Part shown: in pieces, positions 1 through 4,738 of the stretch | Numbering within the stretch: the stretch's first letter is position 1 | How the letters are laid out: every line of letters starts with the position of its first letter | Source of the DNA: a virus | Lineage: Duplodnaviria; Heunggongvirae; Uroviricota; Caudoviricetes | Strand: one strand, 5' to 3' | IMG/VR virus record: IMGVR_UViG_2703718784_000012 | Location: 1-4,738 of that record | Length of the DNA stretch: 4,738 nucleotides | Notes under the pieces: generated by a model | Database searches by the model: none | Seen by the model: only the letters and a program-made list of their open reading frames with translations | What the model was told of the DNA's origin: nothing | Program-made: the position numbers and the translations under genes

Positions 1-158
1 TGAGGATGAAATAATCCCGTTCAGCGGTGTCTGCCAGTCGGGGGCCGGTTGCATTATCCACGCCGGAGGTGCCGGTGGCTTCACGCACGGTACCGTGGCA
101 GGTGGCGTTGATCCGCAGGCGCTTACGACCAGCGGCAACATCAGCACGCAGAGTTTCA
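1..158 (-). CDS. Rz1: Rz1-type o-spanin (outer-membrane lipoprotein) embedded in the +1 frame of Rz; last few codons outside the window
   Basis: ATG at 158..156 inside Rz in an alternate frame; translation MKLCVLMLPLVVSACGSTPPATVPCVKPPAPPAWIMQPAPDWQTPLNGIISSS shows a lipoprotein signal with lipobox VSAC and a proline-rich mature part, matching the remembered lambda Rz1 pattern (PPAWIMQPPPDWQTPLNGII). Confidence 0.8.
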
Positions 159-394
159 TTTTCAGCTCTCGCATCGGCTAATTCCCTCGAGTATTTTGCA
201 TCGAGCGCAGCAACATCGCGCTGGCGCACCTGCATATCAGTAATGGTTGCGTTCGCCAGCTTCAGTTCACTGGCTTTGTTATCGCGCTGCGCTTTGTAGG
301 TAATCGCGTTATCACGGTAATGGTCTGTTGCCATCCACATCGCTCCACAGGCCACCAGCAGGACAATAATCACCACACACAGAACACGGTTCAT
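1..394 (-). CDS. Rz: Rz-type i-spanin (inner-membrane spanin subunit); C-terminal end lies outside the window
   Basis: Not in the ORF track because it has no stop inside the window. Reverse complement of 2..394 translates without stop as MNRVLCVVIIVLLVACGAMWMATDHYRDNAITYKAQRDNKASELKLANATITDMQVRQRDVAALDAKYSRELADARAENETLRADVAAGRKRLRINATCHGTVREATGTSGVDNATGPRLADTAERDYFIL. N-terminal TM helix then helical periplasmic region; closely resembles lambda Rz as I remember it (HYRDNAITYKAQRD, AERDYF). ATG at 394..392 preceded by GAGGGGG SD. Confidence 0.85.
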   Translation of the reverse strand, partial: MNRVLCVVIIVLLVACGAMWMATDHYRDNAITYKAQRDNKASELKLANATITDMQVRQRDVAALDAKYSRELADARAENETLRADVAAGRKRLRINATCHGTVREATGTSGVDNATGPRLADTAERDYFIL

Positions 395-534
395 ATCCCC
401 CTCACCCCAGCATCCCCGACGAAGACAACATCATCCAGCCCAGGGAAAGAAAAATAGCAACCAGCATTAGTGAAAATGAAATGCCGACGATTACACAGAG
501 GATCTTCGCCAGCGTTATGACGCTTGTCTGACAT
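391..534 (-). CDS. Hypothetical 47-aa ORF translationally coupled to Rz (possibly only a coupling leader ORF)
   Basis: Below the size cutoff of the supplied track. ATG 534..532 preceded by AAGAGGA (541..547) with a 6-nt spacer; translation MSDKRHNAGEDPLCNRRHFIFTNAGCYFSFPGLDDVVFVGDAGVRGI; stop TGA (393..391) overlaps the Rz ATG as ATGA. Signals are good but the protein has no recognisable features. Confidence 0.3.
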   Translation of the reverse strand: MSDKRHNAGEDPLCNRRHFIFTNAGCYFSFPGLDDVVFVGDAGVRGI

Positions 535-546
535 GCTTAATCCTCT

Positions 547-729
547 TCACGATTTCAACGCAATGACCAGTTTTGCTAGTCCATACAGCATCGGAGACAC
601 AGCAATACCGACCGCCACCCACTTAATAGCAAAAGCCAGCGCTCTGCTGATGTCATCAGTTACAGGCGCTTTCAGTTCAAGGCCGTTTTTCATAGTCAAC
701 CTCAACAGAATTCGTTTATACTTTTCCAT
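547..729 (-). CDS. Hypothetical 60-aa protein with basic N-terminus and one C-terminal hydrophobic helix
   Basis: Track ORF 547..762 starts at a GTG inside the terminator hairpin with no SD. The internal ATG at 729..727 has AGGGAG 3-4 nt upstream, giving MEKYKRILLRLTMKNGLELKAPVTDDISRALAFAIKWVAVGIAVSPMLYGLAKLVIALKS. No family recognised. Confidence 0.45.
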   Translation of the reverse strand: MEKYKRILLRLTMKNGLELKAPVTDDISRALAFAIKWVAVGIAVSPMLYGLAKLVIALKS

Positions 730-762
730 GTTCTCCCTTGCCTTATCCAAGGTCAGAAACAC

Positions 763-803
763 AAAACCCCGCTTGCTGCCAACAAACGGGGTTTTTACTT
801 TTA
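763..803. terminator. Bidirectional intrinsic-terminator-like hairpin between endolysin and downstream small ORFs
   Basis: Stem 767..775 CCCCGCTTG pairs with 783..791 CAAACGGGG (one mismatch), 7-nt loop; flanked by AAAA (763..766) and TTTTTACTTTT (792..802), so a U-tract follows the hairpin on both strands. Confidence 0.5.
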
Positions 804-885
804 TTCACTTAGGTTTTGCCAGTTCGCAGGATTTCGTGTTATCCGTCCGCGTTGGCCAACGTCATTTTTCAGCAAAATATTCTGC

Positions 886-1419
886 TTATCTGTCGATTCC
901 CCAGCACGCCAGCGCGCTCTCCTGGTCACGACGGGATATCTGGCCGTAACAGTTGTTTGAGCGGATACGGCAGTCTCTGCCACCGTCCTTAATCCACCAG
1001 CGAATCGCTTCACACGCTCCCCTGCGATCGCCTGCATTAATTCGTTTATAAAACGTCGACGGGAAACACTTACCGGGGCCAATGTTATACGGGCAGAATG
1101 ACGCGATCCCCGCTTTCTGGGGTTCAGTCAGTGGCACCCGGATGTTTTTCTCCACCCATGCCAGCGCCTTATCACGCTCAATGGCGTTAACCTGGTCGCA
1201 TTTTTTCTTCGACAACTTCATGCCCGGGACGACAGGTTTGCCATCCACCCTGGTGGCACCACGACAAATGGTCCAGATCCCCGCACCATCACGGTATGCC
1301 GTGGTGTGGTTACCTTCTTTTTCATCCAGAAACTGGTCGAGAATATCAGGCGCAGGCGCCCCTGCGGCAATCAGCGCCAGAACGGCAGCCGACAGGCCGT
1401 ATTTGATTTTGGTGTTCAT
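886..1419 (-). CDS. R: SAR endolysin (signal-anchor-release lysozyme, T4-lysozyme-like glycoside hydrolase)
   Basis: 177-aa ORF MNTKIKYGLSAAVLALIAAGAPAPDILDQFLDEKEGNHTTAYRDGAGIWTICRG. Weakly hydrophobic Gly/Ala-rich N-terminal segment typical of a SAR domain, then E35-x8-D44-x5-T50, the catalytic triad spacing of phage 21 R21-type lysozymes as I recall it. Partnered with a pinholin upstream, as expected for this lysis type. No canonical SD upstream of ATG 1419. Confidence 0.9.
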   Translation of the reverse strand: MNTKIKYGLSAAVLALIAAGAPAPDILDQFLDEKEGNHTTAYRDGAGIWTICRGATRVDGKPVVPGMKLSKKKCDQVNAIERDKALAWVEKNIRVPLTEPQKAGIASFCPYNIGPGKCFPSTFYKRINAGDRRGACEAIRWWIKDGGRDCRIRSNNCYGQISRRDQESALACWGIDR

Positions 1420-1549
1420 GGATATTTATCAGGATTTATCGGTTCCGAATCCCTGGATATGTTAAGCCTTCACCCCACCAGTGGTGGGCACTGGCGGGTT
1501 CTTAATTTCCCCGGATGATCGTGGATTACATTCCACCAGGAGATTACTT

Positions 1550-2182
1550 ATGCTTATCTATCCAGCGGCAGACCTCCGTTTACAGGGACGCAGAGCACAA
1601 CCATGGGATAAAACAACCACTCATAAATATCGTCCCGGTCAATATTATGACTTTCGTAAACACCCGGAACTGATCGAGACACACCTTGAGGATTTTGTTG
1701 AATATTCAGACAGACAAGCGATTCAGACCTTTTTTTCTTTTGTTAAGTGGATCAACAGCAATTCATCTGCATTCGAGAGCACGGACTGCATGTTTTCAGG
1801 AACACCAAAGGTTGATGAATACGCCCCGGTATTTGGTTGCACCCATGCGTCATCTGGCCGCTTCGAATTTTTGTTTCGCGATACGAAAATAAACCAAAAT
1901 GAGCGAGCTGTCGGATGGGTACTTAACAAACTATCGCTCTACCTTCAGAAAGAACGGCCCGATTTTTGTAAAGGAACCTTTGGCATCGTTCCCCTCATGA
2001 CGGAATATACCGACTCCGGCAGTAACGAGTTCACCGGTTATCGTATTTGTGTCTATTTCGATGCTTACGGGAATGGAACAGAGGATACCTGGACTTCTCT
2101 CAACATCATGTTTGATGGCCTCATGAAAGCCACCAAAAGAATGAGCAATGAAACAATCACTGGCGAGATGCGTCCCCTTTAA
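1550..2182 (+). CDS. Hypothetical ~210-aa protein, opposite strand to the lysis genes (moron-like cargo)
   Basis: ORF open from 1481; ATG at 1550 chosen because AGGAG (1538..1542) sits 7 nt upstream. Stop TAA 2180..2182 is followed 26 nt later by a hairpin plus T7. Sampled 60-nt blocks are about 35-45% GC versus about 55% in the endolysin. No motif I can assign. The 3' 252 nt overlap minus ORF 1931..2722 in the codon-aligned antisense frame, so one of the two may be a shadow. Confidence 0.5.
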   Translation: MLIYPAADLRLQGRRAQPWDKTTTHKYRPGQYYDFRKHPELIETHLEDFVEYSDRQAIQTFFSFVKWINSNSSAFESTDCMFSGTPKVDEYAPVFGCTHASSGRFEFLFRDTKINQNERAVGWVLNKLSLYLQKERPDFCKGTFGIVPLMTEYTDSGSNEFTGYRICVYFDAYGNGTEDTWTSLNIMFDGLMKATKRMSNETITGEMRPL

Positions 2183-2722
2183 AAAATTATCCAGAATTTC
2201 ACTATTTGCAGAGCGCTCTCTGTTTTTTTGAATACGGAAACACTCTGCGAGATTTCTGCTCATCACTTTCCGGCAATAATCGTAAAACGCCGCGAACTGC
2301 TCATCACGGCGTTTTTTTTCACCTTCGGAAGGGATCTGCACCGACAGTTTTTTATTCAGTTCAACGACGCTGTTCTCCAGTTTTTCAATGCGTGATTCGA
2401 TATCATCTTTTTCTGACTGTATCGTGTTATATGCATTGTTAATTTGTATGGTATACCGCTCTTCTGAACAAAGGCGCTTTTCCGGCAACGGTTCGTTCCC
2501 TTCACATAACCCGGCAGCAATATCCATGAAAAACTGCTTCGCCTTCTTTTTCGCCTCAGCTTCGTAAAACTCCAGCGGGGCACCTTCAACACGATCAAGA
2601 TCAATCACCACATTTGGCAACAACAGTGACGTATACCCACCAGTTTCCAGCGCCACAGTAACAGTAATCTTATCCGGGTAAATATTTATCCCTTTAACAA
2701 CCAGTTCGTATTGTTTATTCAT
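1931..2722 (-). CDS. Hypothetical 263-aa protein translationally coupled to the pinholin; central coiled-coil-like segment
   Basis: ATG 2722..2720 lies 3 nt after the holin stop TAG (2728..2726); SD GGAG at 2734..2731 with 8-nt spacer lies inside the holin 3' end. Translation MNKQYELVVKGINIYPDKITVTVALETGGYTSLLLPNVVIDLDRVEGAP..., heptad-like middle (DIESRIEKLENSVVELNKKL). The C-terminal 84 codons are antisense to the plus-strand ORF 1550..2182. No family recognised. Confidence 0.5.
   Translation of the reverse strand: MNKQYELVVKGINIYPDKITVTVALETGGYTSLLLPNVVIDLDRVEGAPLEFYEAEAKKKAKQFFMDIAAGLCEGNEPLPEKRLCSEERYTIQINNAYNTIQSEKDDIESRIEKLENSVVELNKKLSVQIPSEGEKKRRDEQFAAFYDYCRKVMSRNLAECFRIQKNRERSANSEILDNFLKGTHLASDCFIAHSFGGFHEAIKHDVERSPGILCSIPVSIEIDTNTITGELVTAGVGIFRHEGNDAKGSFTKIGPFFLKVER
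2208..2229 (+). terminator. Intrinsic-terminator-like hairpin plus T7 after the plus-strand cargo ORF
   Basis: CAGAG (2209..2213), loop CGCT, CTCTG (2218..2222), then TTTTTTT (2223..2229). Short 5-bp stem, so moderate at best. It lies inside the minus-strand 263-aa ORF. Confidence 0.4.
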
Positions 2723-2725
2723 CGT

Positions 2726-2941
2726 CTACTCTCCCCGCGCCGCCTTACGCCGGTCTTCTTTAATTTTGAAATACAGGTTCGTCAGATATGTCAGCAGACC
2801 AAACAGCAGACTCCCCAGCACGCCTATTGCCGCCCACTGAGACGGGGAAACCCTGTCCAGCAACTGCAGGAACCAGTAGCCCGTTCCCACCGCTGACGTG
2901 GTGTATGACACACCTGTTGTGATTTTTTCCATCTGGTACAT
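2726..2941 (-). CDS. S: Pinholin, phage 21 S21-type class II holin with dual-start (antiholin/holin) motif
   Basis: 71 aa [71 protein letters not shown]: two TM segments (first Gly/Ser/Thr-rich), charged C-terminus, Met1 and Met4 as alternative starts. Very close to my memory of S21 ([36 protein letters not shown]). SD GGGAG (2953..2949) 7 nt upstream of ATG 2941. Confidence 0.9.
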
Positions 2942-3016
2942 ACCCCGTCTCCCGCAATCCGGAAGCTCACAACAACAAGTGGGGCATCAGCTCACACCGA
3001 CACCCCCTGCGCATGG

Positions 3017-3286
3017 TTACATCATCATTTCGCCGTCAGGCTGAGGCTCTTCACTACCGTCAGGCTGAGACCCGACGCCATCTGAAACAGCACTGTCATC
3101 CGCAATGCCTTCCGGCTCCGGAACAGTCGGTGCGCCCAGCAGTTCATCCAGAATGGCATCCACTTCTGCATCAAGACGCGCCTCAAGGTTCTGCCGAAGT
3201 TGCTGTTTCAGTGCGCTTCTGACTTCTTCAGAGCGCAGGACTTCCTTCACTGCCTCAGCAGTGACCAGCGATTTTATTTCTGACAT
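3017..3286 (-). CDS. Hypothetical 89-aa acidic helical protein
   Basis: Track ORF 3017..3439; the N-terminal extension would overlap the upstream small ORF and looks non-protein-like. Internal ATG at 3286..3284 gives MSEIKSLVTAEAVKEVLRSEEVRSALKQQLRQNLEARLDAEVDAILDELLGAPTVPEPEGIADDSAVSDGVGSQPDGSEEPQPDGEMMM; weak SD (GAGAAAA). No family recognised. Confidence 0.5.
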   Translation of the reverse strand: MSEIKSLVTAEAVKEVLRSEEVRSALKQQLRQNLEARLDAEVDAILDELLGAPTVPEPEGIADDSAVSDGVGSQPDGSEEPQPDGEMMM

Positions 3287-3311
3287 AGGATTTTCTCGTT
3301 GAAAGGGGTTA

Positions 3312-3506
3312 TTAAGAAGGTTGTTCCGGAATGAGTGGGGCTTCTGTTTTTGCTCCGGCTGACTGACTGGCGCTGATTTTCTCTGCGGCCCTTTTATCAA
3401 TCTGCCTGCGCCAGGAATCGCGCACTGCCCTGTACCCACCCGAAAGAAGATACAGCACGCATACCACCGTACAGAAGTACAGCATCACCTGATGAACAAA
3501 TGTCAT
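3312..3506 (-). CDS. Hypothetical 64-aa small membrane protein
   Basis: MTFVHQVMLYFCTVVCVLYLLSGGYRAVRDSWRRQIDKRAAEKISASQSAGAKTEAPLIPEQPS: one N-terminal TM helix then a basic tail. Weak SD. An alternative overlapping ORF (3397..3579) cannot be excluded. Confidence 0.4.
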   Translation of the reverse strand: MTFVHQVMLYFCTVVCVLYLLSGGYRAVRDSWRRQIDKRAAEKISASQSAGAKTEAPLIPEQPS

Positions 3507-3524
3507 AGTTTCTTACCGTTATGG

Positions 3525-3554
3525 TTGACTCTGGAAGCAGTTTTCGTTTAAAAA
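3525..3554 (+). promoter_or_regulatory. Weak sigma70-like promoter candidate on the plus strand
   Basis: TTGACT (3525..3530), 18-nt spacer, TAAAAA (3549..3554). The -35 is near consensus but the -10 lacks the conserved final T, so this is weak. Confidence 0.15.
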
Positions 3555-3609
3555 ATACCAGTGACGAAAGTGATATCATCTTTCCCTGATTCTCACCATG
3601 AATCTCACA

Positions 3610-3645
3610 CCGCCAGGGGTTTCAGGCCAGCTGGCGGTTTTTTTT
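3610..3645 (+). terminator. GC-rich hairpin followed by T8 (plus-strand intrinsic-terminator-like element)
   Basis: CCGCCAG (3610..3616) can pair with CTGGCGG (3631..3637); an internal 10-nt palindrome GCCAGCTGGC (3626..3635) offers an alternative stem; followed by TTTTTTTT (3638..3645). On the minus strand the hairpin is preceded by A8 and not followed by a U-tract, so it is oriented for plus-strand transcripts only. Confidence 0.45.
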
Positions 3646-3650
3646 GCCGG

Positions 3651-4738
3651 TTATGCTGATTCCCGGTTTTCGTTAACTTTGACTGTGACCGTATCAAGCA
3701 GTACCGGATACGTCGCTTTTGCCCCCGTGATATCTGTCAGCGTCAGCGTATCTGCTGTAAAGCCATCATTTGTCCACATCACAAGGTCAAATGCCGTCTG
3801 CTCTGCACCATCAATCACCGGAACAACTCTTTCGCTGTTATTTCCCGCAAAGCGGAAAACAACCGTATGCCAGTTATGGTCAAACGTACCAAATGTACCC
3901 AGTTGTGCATTCGAGGAGCCCTTCTGGTGCATCAGATTAAGATTTGATGTATCCGTCTGAAGGAAGAATGATGCCAGCATACTGTTTGCTGTCGCGCCTG
4001 ACGCCCACTGCGACACCGGCCAGTAGATACCAAAGACAAACTGTCCGTTCACCAGCTCGCTTCCATCCGGAATTTTGAACCGTACGGCAATTTCCCCCCC
4101 CTTGCTGAGAAGATTTTTTGCCTCCTCCACTGCAATAGTACGGAACATTTTCCAGGACGTCAGTTTACCGGGCTGTTTTTCCAGTCGCAGCGCTTTCCGT
4201 CCACCGTCATCAGTCACAGTGCCTTTGCCGCCGGAAGCGCCCCACTGCTGCTCTGTCAATGCACCATTTCCACTGTTCGCATCATATTCAGCCACCGTCC
4301 TGGTACTGCTCACGGCCTCATCATGACCAGTACCAGCAACACCGCCATCCTGCGGTTTCTCAACATCCGGTGTCCCCGGACTGACAGGCGTTGTACCACC
4401 CGACTGCGGTGCGCTCTGCCCGGTAAGGAACGATAATGTCCGCCCGGCGTACTGCAAAATGGCACCTGCCAGGCGGTCTGAAACAAGGCCTCTTCGCGCC
4501 CATGAACTGAAGTGCGTTTTACGATCGGCTGCCGTCCAGTTACTGGCAGTGCGTGACGCAGCGCCATAGTATCCCGCCGGGATAATGTCCGGATCTTCTG
4601 ACGGCTCGTTTGTCGGCACATTCACACCATGCTCATCCGTCATCAACGGCACAAAGTGAATATTCTGCGCAGCTTTTCCTTTATACCCACCGTAAACCGC
4701 CTCATACGGCACTGCATACCTTTCCTTCCAGTAGTACG
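3651..4738 (-). CDS. Large hypothetical protein, 3' portion only (ORF continues upstream beyond the window end)
   Basis: Track ORF 3651..4712 starts at a GTG, but the frame stays open to the window edge (upstream codons read YYWKERYA), so the true start is outside. Stop TAA at 3653..3651. Has a Gly/Ser/Thr/Pro-rich linker (GQSAPQSGGTTPVSPGTPDVEKPQDGGVAGTGHDE) between two globular-looking parts. It occupies the slot upstream of the holin where Stx phages carry stx and a large esterase-like ORF, but I see no diagnostic motif. Confidence 0.7.
   Translation of the reverse strand, partial: YYWKERYAVPYEAVYGGYKGKAAQNIHFVPLMTDEHGVNVPTNEPSEDPDIIPAGYYGAASRTASNWTAADRKTHFSSWARRGLVSDRLAGAILQYAGRTLSFLTGQSAPQSGGTTPVSPGTPDVEKPQDGGVAGTGHDEAVSSTRTVAEYDANSGNGALTEQQWGASGGKGTVTDDGGRKALRLEKQPGKLTSWKMFRTIAVEEAKNLLSKGGEIAVRFKIPDGSELVNGQFVFGIYWPVSQWASGATANSMLASFFLQTDTSNLNLMHQKGSSNAQLGTFGTFDHNWHTVVFRFAGNNSERVVPVIDGAEQTAFDLVMWTNDGFTADTLTLTDITGAKATYPVLLDTVTVKVNENRESA

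Follow-up and report, generated by a model that had tools for sequence, protein, structure and literature searches.

A putative YdfR-family gene at the predicted downstream ribosome-binding site of an S21-type pinholin gene, its 3' end apparently replaced by an antisense cassette

In the Qin prophage of Escherichia coli K-12, the S21-type holin gene essQ is followed after a 4-nucleotide (nt) gap by ydfR, with AGAGGAGAG in the last holin codons; ydfR meets rrrQ in an ATGA overlap, and rrrQ overlaps rzpQ. In phage 21 and the K-12 prophage DLP12 (essD-rrrD), a Shine-Dalgarno (SD) sequence likewise occupies the final codons of the holin gene, and the gene behind it opens at the holin stop (GAGGTGAATAATG). 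YdfR-family genes directly follow S in functional or induced lambdoid phages, namely BP-4795 (ORF47) and PhiR12_1 ('DUF1327 containing protein'). Here we analyze a 4,738-nt stretch of DNA (hereafter the window; positions 1 to 4,738 of IMG/VR record IMGVR_UViG_2703718784_000012), which corresponds to the late/lysis region of a lambdoid (Stx-type) prophage, is read here along its minus strand and shares with Qin the order of S21-type holin, DUF1327/YdfR gene, signal-arrest-release (SAR)-type lysozyme and spanin. Our subject is the open reading frame (ORF) of 263 amino acids (aa) that starts just past the holin stop and that a first-pass annotation had described as a cargo gene coupled to the pinholin. 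We consider it likely that this ORF starts at the ribosome-binding site that S21-type pinholin genes provide for the next gene, that it belongs to the YdfR family and that its 3' part is a chimeric tail read from an antisense cassette with a real 210-aa gene of its own.

Read along the minus strand, the junction sequence is ...GCG GCG CGG GGA GAG TAG ACG ATG AAT AAA... (in short GGGGAGAG-TAG-ACG-ATG; window 2760..2700, AAGAAGACCGGCGTAAGGCGGCGCGGGGAGAGTAGACGATGAATAAACAATACGAACTGGT), and the positions first given for the TAG (2728..2726), for the ATG at 2722 three nt later and for a GGAG within the last holin codons were exact. For GGGGAGAG, the predicted pairing with the 3' end of 16S rRNA reached -8.5 kcal/mol; the background averaged -2.5, and no more than ~4% of the window's 20-mers attained -7 kcal/mol. 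The choice of start codon agrees with the family as well, with position 1 of the DUF1327 model aligning with residue 1 and the same Met opening all homologues.

To place this junction among its relatives, we assembled 80 viral loci with an S21-type holin like the window's, added annotated phage and E. coli loci, Qin and DLP12, and included eight more divergent YdfR loci from a scan of genome contigs with the YdfR alignment; sampling beyond Escherichia and Shigella was thin. In the resulting set of 42 distinct holin-end sequences, drawn from 96 loci, the next gene opened without exception (42/42) 3-4 nt past the holin stop or, in DLP12, overlapping that stop (TAATG). At the holin end the final three codons were nearly invariant (CGG in 38 and AGA in 4, GGA in 39, GAG in 40), whereas nearby Arg, Ala, Thr and Gly codons of the holin varied freely at the third position, a pattern that suggests selection on the SD as such. 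Even the divergent loci, at 38-55% identity, retained a stop, 4 nt and an ATG, together with a purine-rich SD. Loss of the start or SD from homologous loci had been named at the outset as evidence that the ATG at 2722 is not used; both are conserved across the 42 junctions.

What follows this site is far less constant. We classified the downstream gene in 85 viral loci and the window and found three types. The first, with about 62 loci or ~73% of the sample, is the YdfR/DUF1327 type (M-x-K/Q-x-Y-E-L-V/I-V-K-G...; 86 to 328 aa), so that the order of S21-type holin, YdfR gene and SAR endolysin is shared by the window with Qin, BP-4795, PhiR12_1 and ~62/86 sampled loci. The second is an 'MNHEEMNQR...' variant (11 loci) in which the DUF1327 domain is replaced and the family's downstream part is kept. 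In the third (12/85 viral loci) the SAR endolysin follows directly, as GGGGAGAG-TAA-GCTG-ATG-AGC-AGG. Because these direct S-R loci share the GGGGAGAG context, the start context is the one that serves the endolysin where no gene stands between, and the earlier remark that the geometry is the one normally used by the endolysin gene held for them as it did for DLP12 essD/rrrD. These comparisons point to the junction as the ribosome-binding site that S21-type pinholin genes regularly supply to the gene behind them, a site at the holin end that would act like a fixed docking point for a highly variable next gene.

The 'MNHEEMNQR...' variant (L045 2717..3274, L034, L006 and 8 other viral loci) encodes 161-213 aa, with ~19 residues in place of DUF1327 and the first part of the helical region, and its start is still 3 nt past the holin stop. 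In L034 this N-terminus is joined with the window's antisense cassette.

The first 96 residues of the 263-aa ORF (2722..2435) matched Pfam DUF1327 (PF07041) with 116.3 bits (cut-off 25, E 7.5e-34), aligning with model positions 1-90 of 93, and PHROG coverage extended over aa 1-168 only (phrog_2091). Homologues have in common this N-domain, a helical SEKDDIESRIEKLE segment and ...EKKRRDEQFAAFYDYCRKVMSRNLAECF, beyond which they diverge into at least three unrelated C-termini. In the window the family alignment diverges past ...AECF (aa 162), DNA homology to the long-form locus L015 stops at 2229 (codon 165) and the native C-terminus of any recurrent family form is not retained. The AlphaFold2 model is in keeping with this division: aa 1-73 were confidently predicted as three strands and a helix, aa 87-168 as helical, and the predicted local distance difference test (pLDDT) score fell below 50 for aa 164-263. 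The proposed extent of 263 aa has therefore to be revised, since only residues 1-165 are family sequence and the rest is read-through.

The same data bear on the proposal that the ORF is foreign cargo lodged between S and R, having captured the start context of R, strictly coupled to the holin and related to lysis. In its favor, direct S-R loci and DLP12 start R in the same context, the window's R has been displaced and lacks an SD, and the S-R interval is highly mosaic. However, the N-terminal 165 aa belong to the family that fills this slot in most related cassettes, all four Qin genes abut or overlap with ydfR among them, the window-specific DNA is an antisense cassette rather than the 5' part of the ORF, no structure ties the ribosome-binding site to translation of S, and the sole functional data on the family concern RNase E and RNA, not the envelope. 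We find this proposal quite unlikely. By homology the 263-aa ORF is best read as a YdfR-family resident of the cassette, not as the cargo that displaced R, and its apparent length results from the frame running on into an antisense insert.

That insert, of 732 bp, was missing by BLAST from related S-ydfR-R loci (L015, L003, L002 and others), with homology to short-form loci picking up again at ~1496. Of 5426 complete E. coli genomes, 133 carried it at identities of at least 99%, in 200 places altogether; most of the 133 were Shiga toxin-producing strains, and tblastn with its 210-aa protein gave matches of at least 99% identity in 8 Stx1a/Stx2a phages. Its plus-strand gene has its own SD, with only 53 nt of insert upstream of the ATG, and a terminator-like site at the cassette edge coincides with the left breakpoint, so that a discrete insert, a translation signal and a terminator are all present as in a moron. 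Full-length homologues of the 210-aa protein at 53-65% identity lie in other prophage contexts, beside sodC in Salmonella or antisense among lambda-like tail genes, and an exhaustive HMMER search returned 228 cluster representatives (E <= 1e-3), mostly full-length at ~205-215 aa. Among four lineages, substitutions were more frequent at position 3 than at position 1 and at position 1 than at position 2 of the plus frame, throughout the gene. Neither the protein nor its distant relatives matched Pfam, NCBIfam, PHROGs or PADLOC, and fold searches gave no usable result for it or for the product of the 263-aa ORF. Homology, codon pattern and context together give good support for a real plus-strand gene of 210 aa, which would be the true cargo of this locus, in a cassette that appears to have replaced the native 3' end of ydfR in opposite orientation. 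In genomes that carry the cassette, the Prokaryotic Genome Annotation Pipeline (PGAP) usually leaves it without annotation. In one genome PGAP calls a 95-aa ORF on the opposite strand within the 210-aa gene (L005 2637..2924).

Since the ydfR frame is aligned antisense to the plus-strand ORF, it stays open until codon 128 of the latter, and the TAG that ends the tail at 1931 is the complement of the plus-strand CTA (Leu128). We considered whether the tail (aa 166-263) might be a selected coding region that forms a true antisense overlapping pair with the 210-aa gene. Its frame is stop-free over the last 82 codons in three of the four lineages (window 1931..2182; L089 1010..1258; L090 1079..1327), all ending at the same CTA codon 128, and over this stretch TTA, CTA or TCA make up 0/10-14 of the Leu/Ser codons versus 5-13/16-21 in the first 128. 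The substitutions nevertheless obey the plus frame in the last 82 codons too, sense identity exceeds antisense identity in every comparison, three stops interrupt the antisense frame of this stretch in the Salmonella homologue, the antisense ORF in L089 and L090 has no conserved start or upstream part, and pLDDT is low along the tail. Given the substitution pattern and the stops in Salmonella, we rejected an overlapping antisense gene as highly improbable. The end of the tail, '...LKVER', resembles '...LKVRI' of the long form; we set this aside as an alignment coincidence, DNA homology being back only at ~1496/1425.

A different possibility is that the ydfR-like gene is a dead pseudogene, the junction a relic and the product unstable and irrelevant. 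PGAP labels the gene a pseudogene ('incomplete... missing C-terminus'), other sequence stands in place of the native C-terminus, disorder is predicted for the tail and a frameshifted 140-aa derivative exists in L063. The start, the SD and residues 1-165 are nonetheless intact, the latter at 76-98% identity to full-length family members; natural short forms of 103-116 aa have little beyond the N-domain, so loss of a long C-terminus need not abolish function; and the chimeric tail recurs in abundant 263-aa and 305-aa variants. On balance we think the gene is unlikely to be dead, and we retain the reading of a YdfR-family gene with an intact N-terminal part. The coordinates of these and neighboring features are given in Table 1.

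Table 1. Features of the window, in minus-strand order
Feature	Position	Strand	Remarks
SASA/DUF6645 esterase	4712..3651	minus	
DUF1378	3506..3312	minus	
DUF826	3286..3017	minus	
S21-type class II holin (pinholin), 71 aa	2941..2726	minus	PF04971 'Bacteriophage P21 holin S', E 7.2e-33
Predicted SD GGGGAGAG in final holin codons (Arg-Gly-Glu)	2736..2729	minus	GGAG core 2734..2731
Holin stop TAG	2728..2726	minus	in frame with downstream 263-aa ORF
Spacer ACG between holin stop and next ATG, 3 nt	2725..2723	minus	
ATG, predicted start of YdfR-family ORF	2722..2720	minus	3 nt past holin stop
ORF, 263 aa / 263 codons (YdfR family and tail)	2722..1931	minus	from ORF list
Genuine YdfR-family part, aa 1-165	2722..2229	minus	DUF1327, then helical/coiled-coil region to ...MSRNLAECF
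Non-native tail, aa 166-263	2228..1931	minus	read-through over terminator and codon-aligned antisense of plus-strand gene
Terminator-like hairpin GCAGAGCGCTCTCTGT and T run	2208..2229 (hairpin 2208-2223)	plus	26 nt past stop of plus-strand gene
Inserted cassette, 732 bp (antisense moron)	1497..2228	plus	boundaries 2229/2228 and ~1496
Gene of 210-aa protein	1550..2182	plus	SD AGGAG 1538..1542, 7 nt upstream, -7.4 kcal/mol
Endolysin leader ...GATAAATCCTGATAAATATCC-ATG, A/T-rich	1420..1496	minus	conserved in all ydfR-bearing loci
SAR endolysin (R21-type lysozyme), 177 aa	1419..886	minus	Pfam Phage_lysozyme PF00959, E 1.5e-24
Small ORF, phrog_1115	762..547	minus	
Rz start	downstream of 547	minus	

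Stop and start codons within a few nt of each other and an SD inside the upstream ORF make up the geometry expected of translational coupling. RNA folding of 2800..2670 gave no significant structure (minimum free energy -24.1 kcal/mol; z = 0.34 relative to shuffled sequences) and left the SD and ATG largely unpaired, and we therefore set aside coupling through a masked ribosome-binding site that upstream translation would open. Because the site is strong and unstructured, strict dependence on translation of S is not required. From the sequence, real coupling of ydfR to the holin and independent initiation at the junction appear about equally probable. In the arrangement we propose, the ydfR-family gene would be carried with S on the Q-dependent late transcript; CGG GGA GAG would serve as both holin end and SD, with the following gene starting 3-4 nt past the stop; and translation from ATG 2722 would begin either with ribosomes newly bound at the SD within S or with ribosomes fresh from termination at the TAG, 3 nt before it. 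The 732-bp cassette (2228..1497) would have displaced the native 3' end so that the frame runs on for 98 extra codons, and the expected product would keep the N-terminal domain and carry a non-native, probably disordered tail. The earlier suggestion that the protein is made late together with the holin is thus a reasonable one for its late co-expression, given the context, but not for its being cargo, DUF1327 being the resident of this slot.

The window's lysis genes are those of a pinholin/SAR-endolysin system, with an S21-family holin (about 70 aa, two hydrophobic segments) and a SAR-bearing lysozyme. Residues 8-24 of the endolysin, YGLSAAVLALIAAGAPA, form a Gly/Ala-rich hydrophobic SAR-like segment, and E35, D44 and T50 were identified in the translation; we take the protein to be R21-like. 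Its start lies 511 nt downstream of the stop of the 263-aa ORF, so that it must initiate unaided on an A/U-rich leader. In all ydfR-bearing loci this leader lacks an SD (anti-SD pairing +0.6 kcal/mol). The ATGA overlap in Qin suggests an ancestral reinitiation arrangement that is broken in the window. Between the endolysin start and the cassette, within the conserved segment, lies a perfect GC-rich palindrome, CCCACCAGTGGTGGG (1474..1488), with no T run after it on either strand; it might be an operator or a 5' untranslated region hairpin of the plus-strand gene.

Several features of the holin gene and its surroundings deserve mention. Over window 3000..1400, E. coli SCU-106 matches at 99.9% identity and five Stx1a-converting phages at about 98%; in a 99.9% identical genome PGAP labels the holin a 'class II holin family protein'. 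The holin N-terminus, MYQMEK... (2930..2941), allows a possible dual start at M1/M4. Qin/P21-type holins begin MKSMDK..., and the window's protein keeps the two-Met motif, its longer form being without the extra Lys that is thought to turn the longer holin product into an antiholin. The holin TAG is in the ydfR-like frame, so that amber read-through or suppression would yield a holin-YdfR fusion, and a metagenomic protein (P0119, 184 aa) has PF04971 and PF07041 together; at most other loci the gap is 4 nt and hence out of frame. A terminator-like hairpin with 11 pairs (GGGGTGTCGGTGTGAGCTGATGCCCC; 3006..2981, minus strand) separates DUF826 from the holin start; it stands ~40 nt ahead of the holin ATG and may influence holin translation or transcription.

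On the function of the family, the literature searched offered data from one study (PMC13232886), ydfR otherwise appearing mostly as the name of a melanoma cell line. Residues 1-72 of Qin YdfR bind the N-terminal catalytic half of RNase E in two-hybrid and co-purification experiments, the protein pulls down RNA, and its overproduction causes little transcriptome change (PMC13232886). According to the same paper, ydfR was also a hit in an earlier screen for cell-envelope integrity. A survey of Stx-phage lysis cassettes (PMC8136144) does not mention the intervening gene. A late-acting role, as the first-pass annotation had anticipated, is compatible with the RNase E data; the lysis-associated role it offered alongside found no direct support. 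A bolder idea is that YdfR is a fourth, translationally linked component of pinholin/SAR-endolysin systems, whose N-domain would engage RNase E late in infection and protect late transcripts or tune lysis timing, whose C-terminal half would act as a hot spot for recombination and be swapped or overwritten time and again by antisense passengers, and on whose translation the SD-less endolysin would ancestrally have depended through the ATGA overlap. We regard this as doubtful; if true, insertions like the window's would rewire endolysin dosage.

A number of observations weigh against our interpretation of the locus. The near-fixed SD codons also encode the conserved Arg-Gly-Glu and are under constraint from it, and the loci are related, so that fixation of the codons is weaker evidence than the counts imply. 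Geometry and conservation are what point to translation from ATG 2722 and to its timing. A scan of 1300..3100 gave no sigma-70 consensus match for the plus-strand gene, and chance would explain an open antisense frame in three of four lineages only marginally. RNase E binding may not transfer to the window's protein, the N-domain of which is 38% identical to that of Qin YdfR. Taken as a whole, the account of an S21 ribosome-binding site, a YdfR-family gene, an antisense cassette with a real 210-aa gene and a chimeric tail is still the one we consider likely, and the first-pass interpretation of the junction was partly supported.

Annotated records already contain this arrangement, which is an ordinary one, although the literature searched does not discuss it; new here are the corrected gene model and the overlooked antisense gene. 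In many Stx and lambdoid prophages, what follows the pinholin gene is best taken as a YdfR-family member whose start context is fixed rather than as random cargo, and the 263-aa and 305-aa 'proteins' in databases are best taken as chimeras. The 210-aa gene is largely absent from RefSeq annotation because it is antisense in a lysis operon. The YdfR family itself is a common but poorly understood member of S21-type lysis cassettes, which raises the questions of what a conserved RNase E-binding domain made with the holin does and how a cut-off, SD-less SAR endolysin is translated.

Set against the described systems, the window differs from Qin in that YdfR has 103 aa there, its stop overlapping the rrrQ start, whereas the window's gene runs to 263 codons with a foreign tail and ends 511 nt from R with an antisense gene between. 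In the phage 21/DLP12 type the endolysin itself is downstream of the holin, whereas the slot in the window holds a YdfR-family gene; direct S-R loci with the window's holin type read GGGGAGAG-TAA-GCTG-ATG, and their endolysins begin MSRKLR... in place of the window's MNTKIK..., which lacks an SD. Lambdoid morons such as bor, lom and sodC are passenger genes with transcription of their own. Unlike them, the window's cassette lies antisense inside a late lysis operon and overwrites part of a resident gene; no promoter was recognised for its gene, and the encoded protein could be assigned to no known family or fold. The cassette resembles them as a one-gene unit with its own SD and an edge terminator, absent from collinear relatives, with homologues at other prophage positions (next to sodC in Salmonella; by tail genes). 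BP-4795 (114 aa) and PhiR12_1 (169 aa) differ from the window in the length and C-terminus of their YdfR-family proteins. PhiR12_1 (L003) also has an antisense gene at the ydfR 3' end, at the same insertion site as in the window but with a different passenger: annotated DUF1823 (2728..2988), it overlaps the 3' end of ydfR and borders on the conserved endolysin leader that the window has too. Antisense passenger genes thus seem to have landed repeatedly at the 3' end of ydfR.

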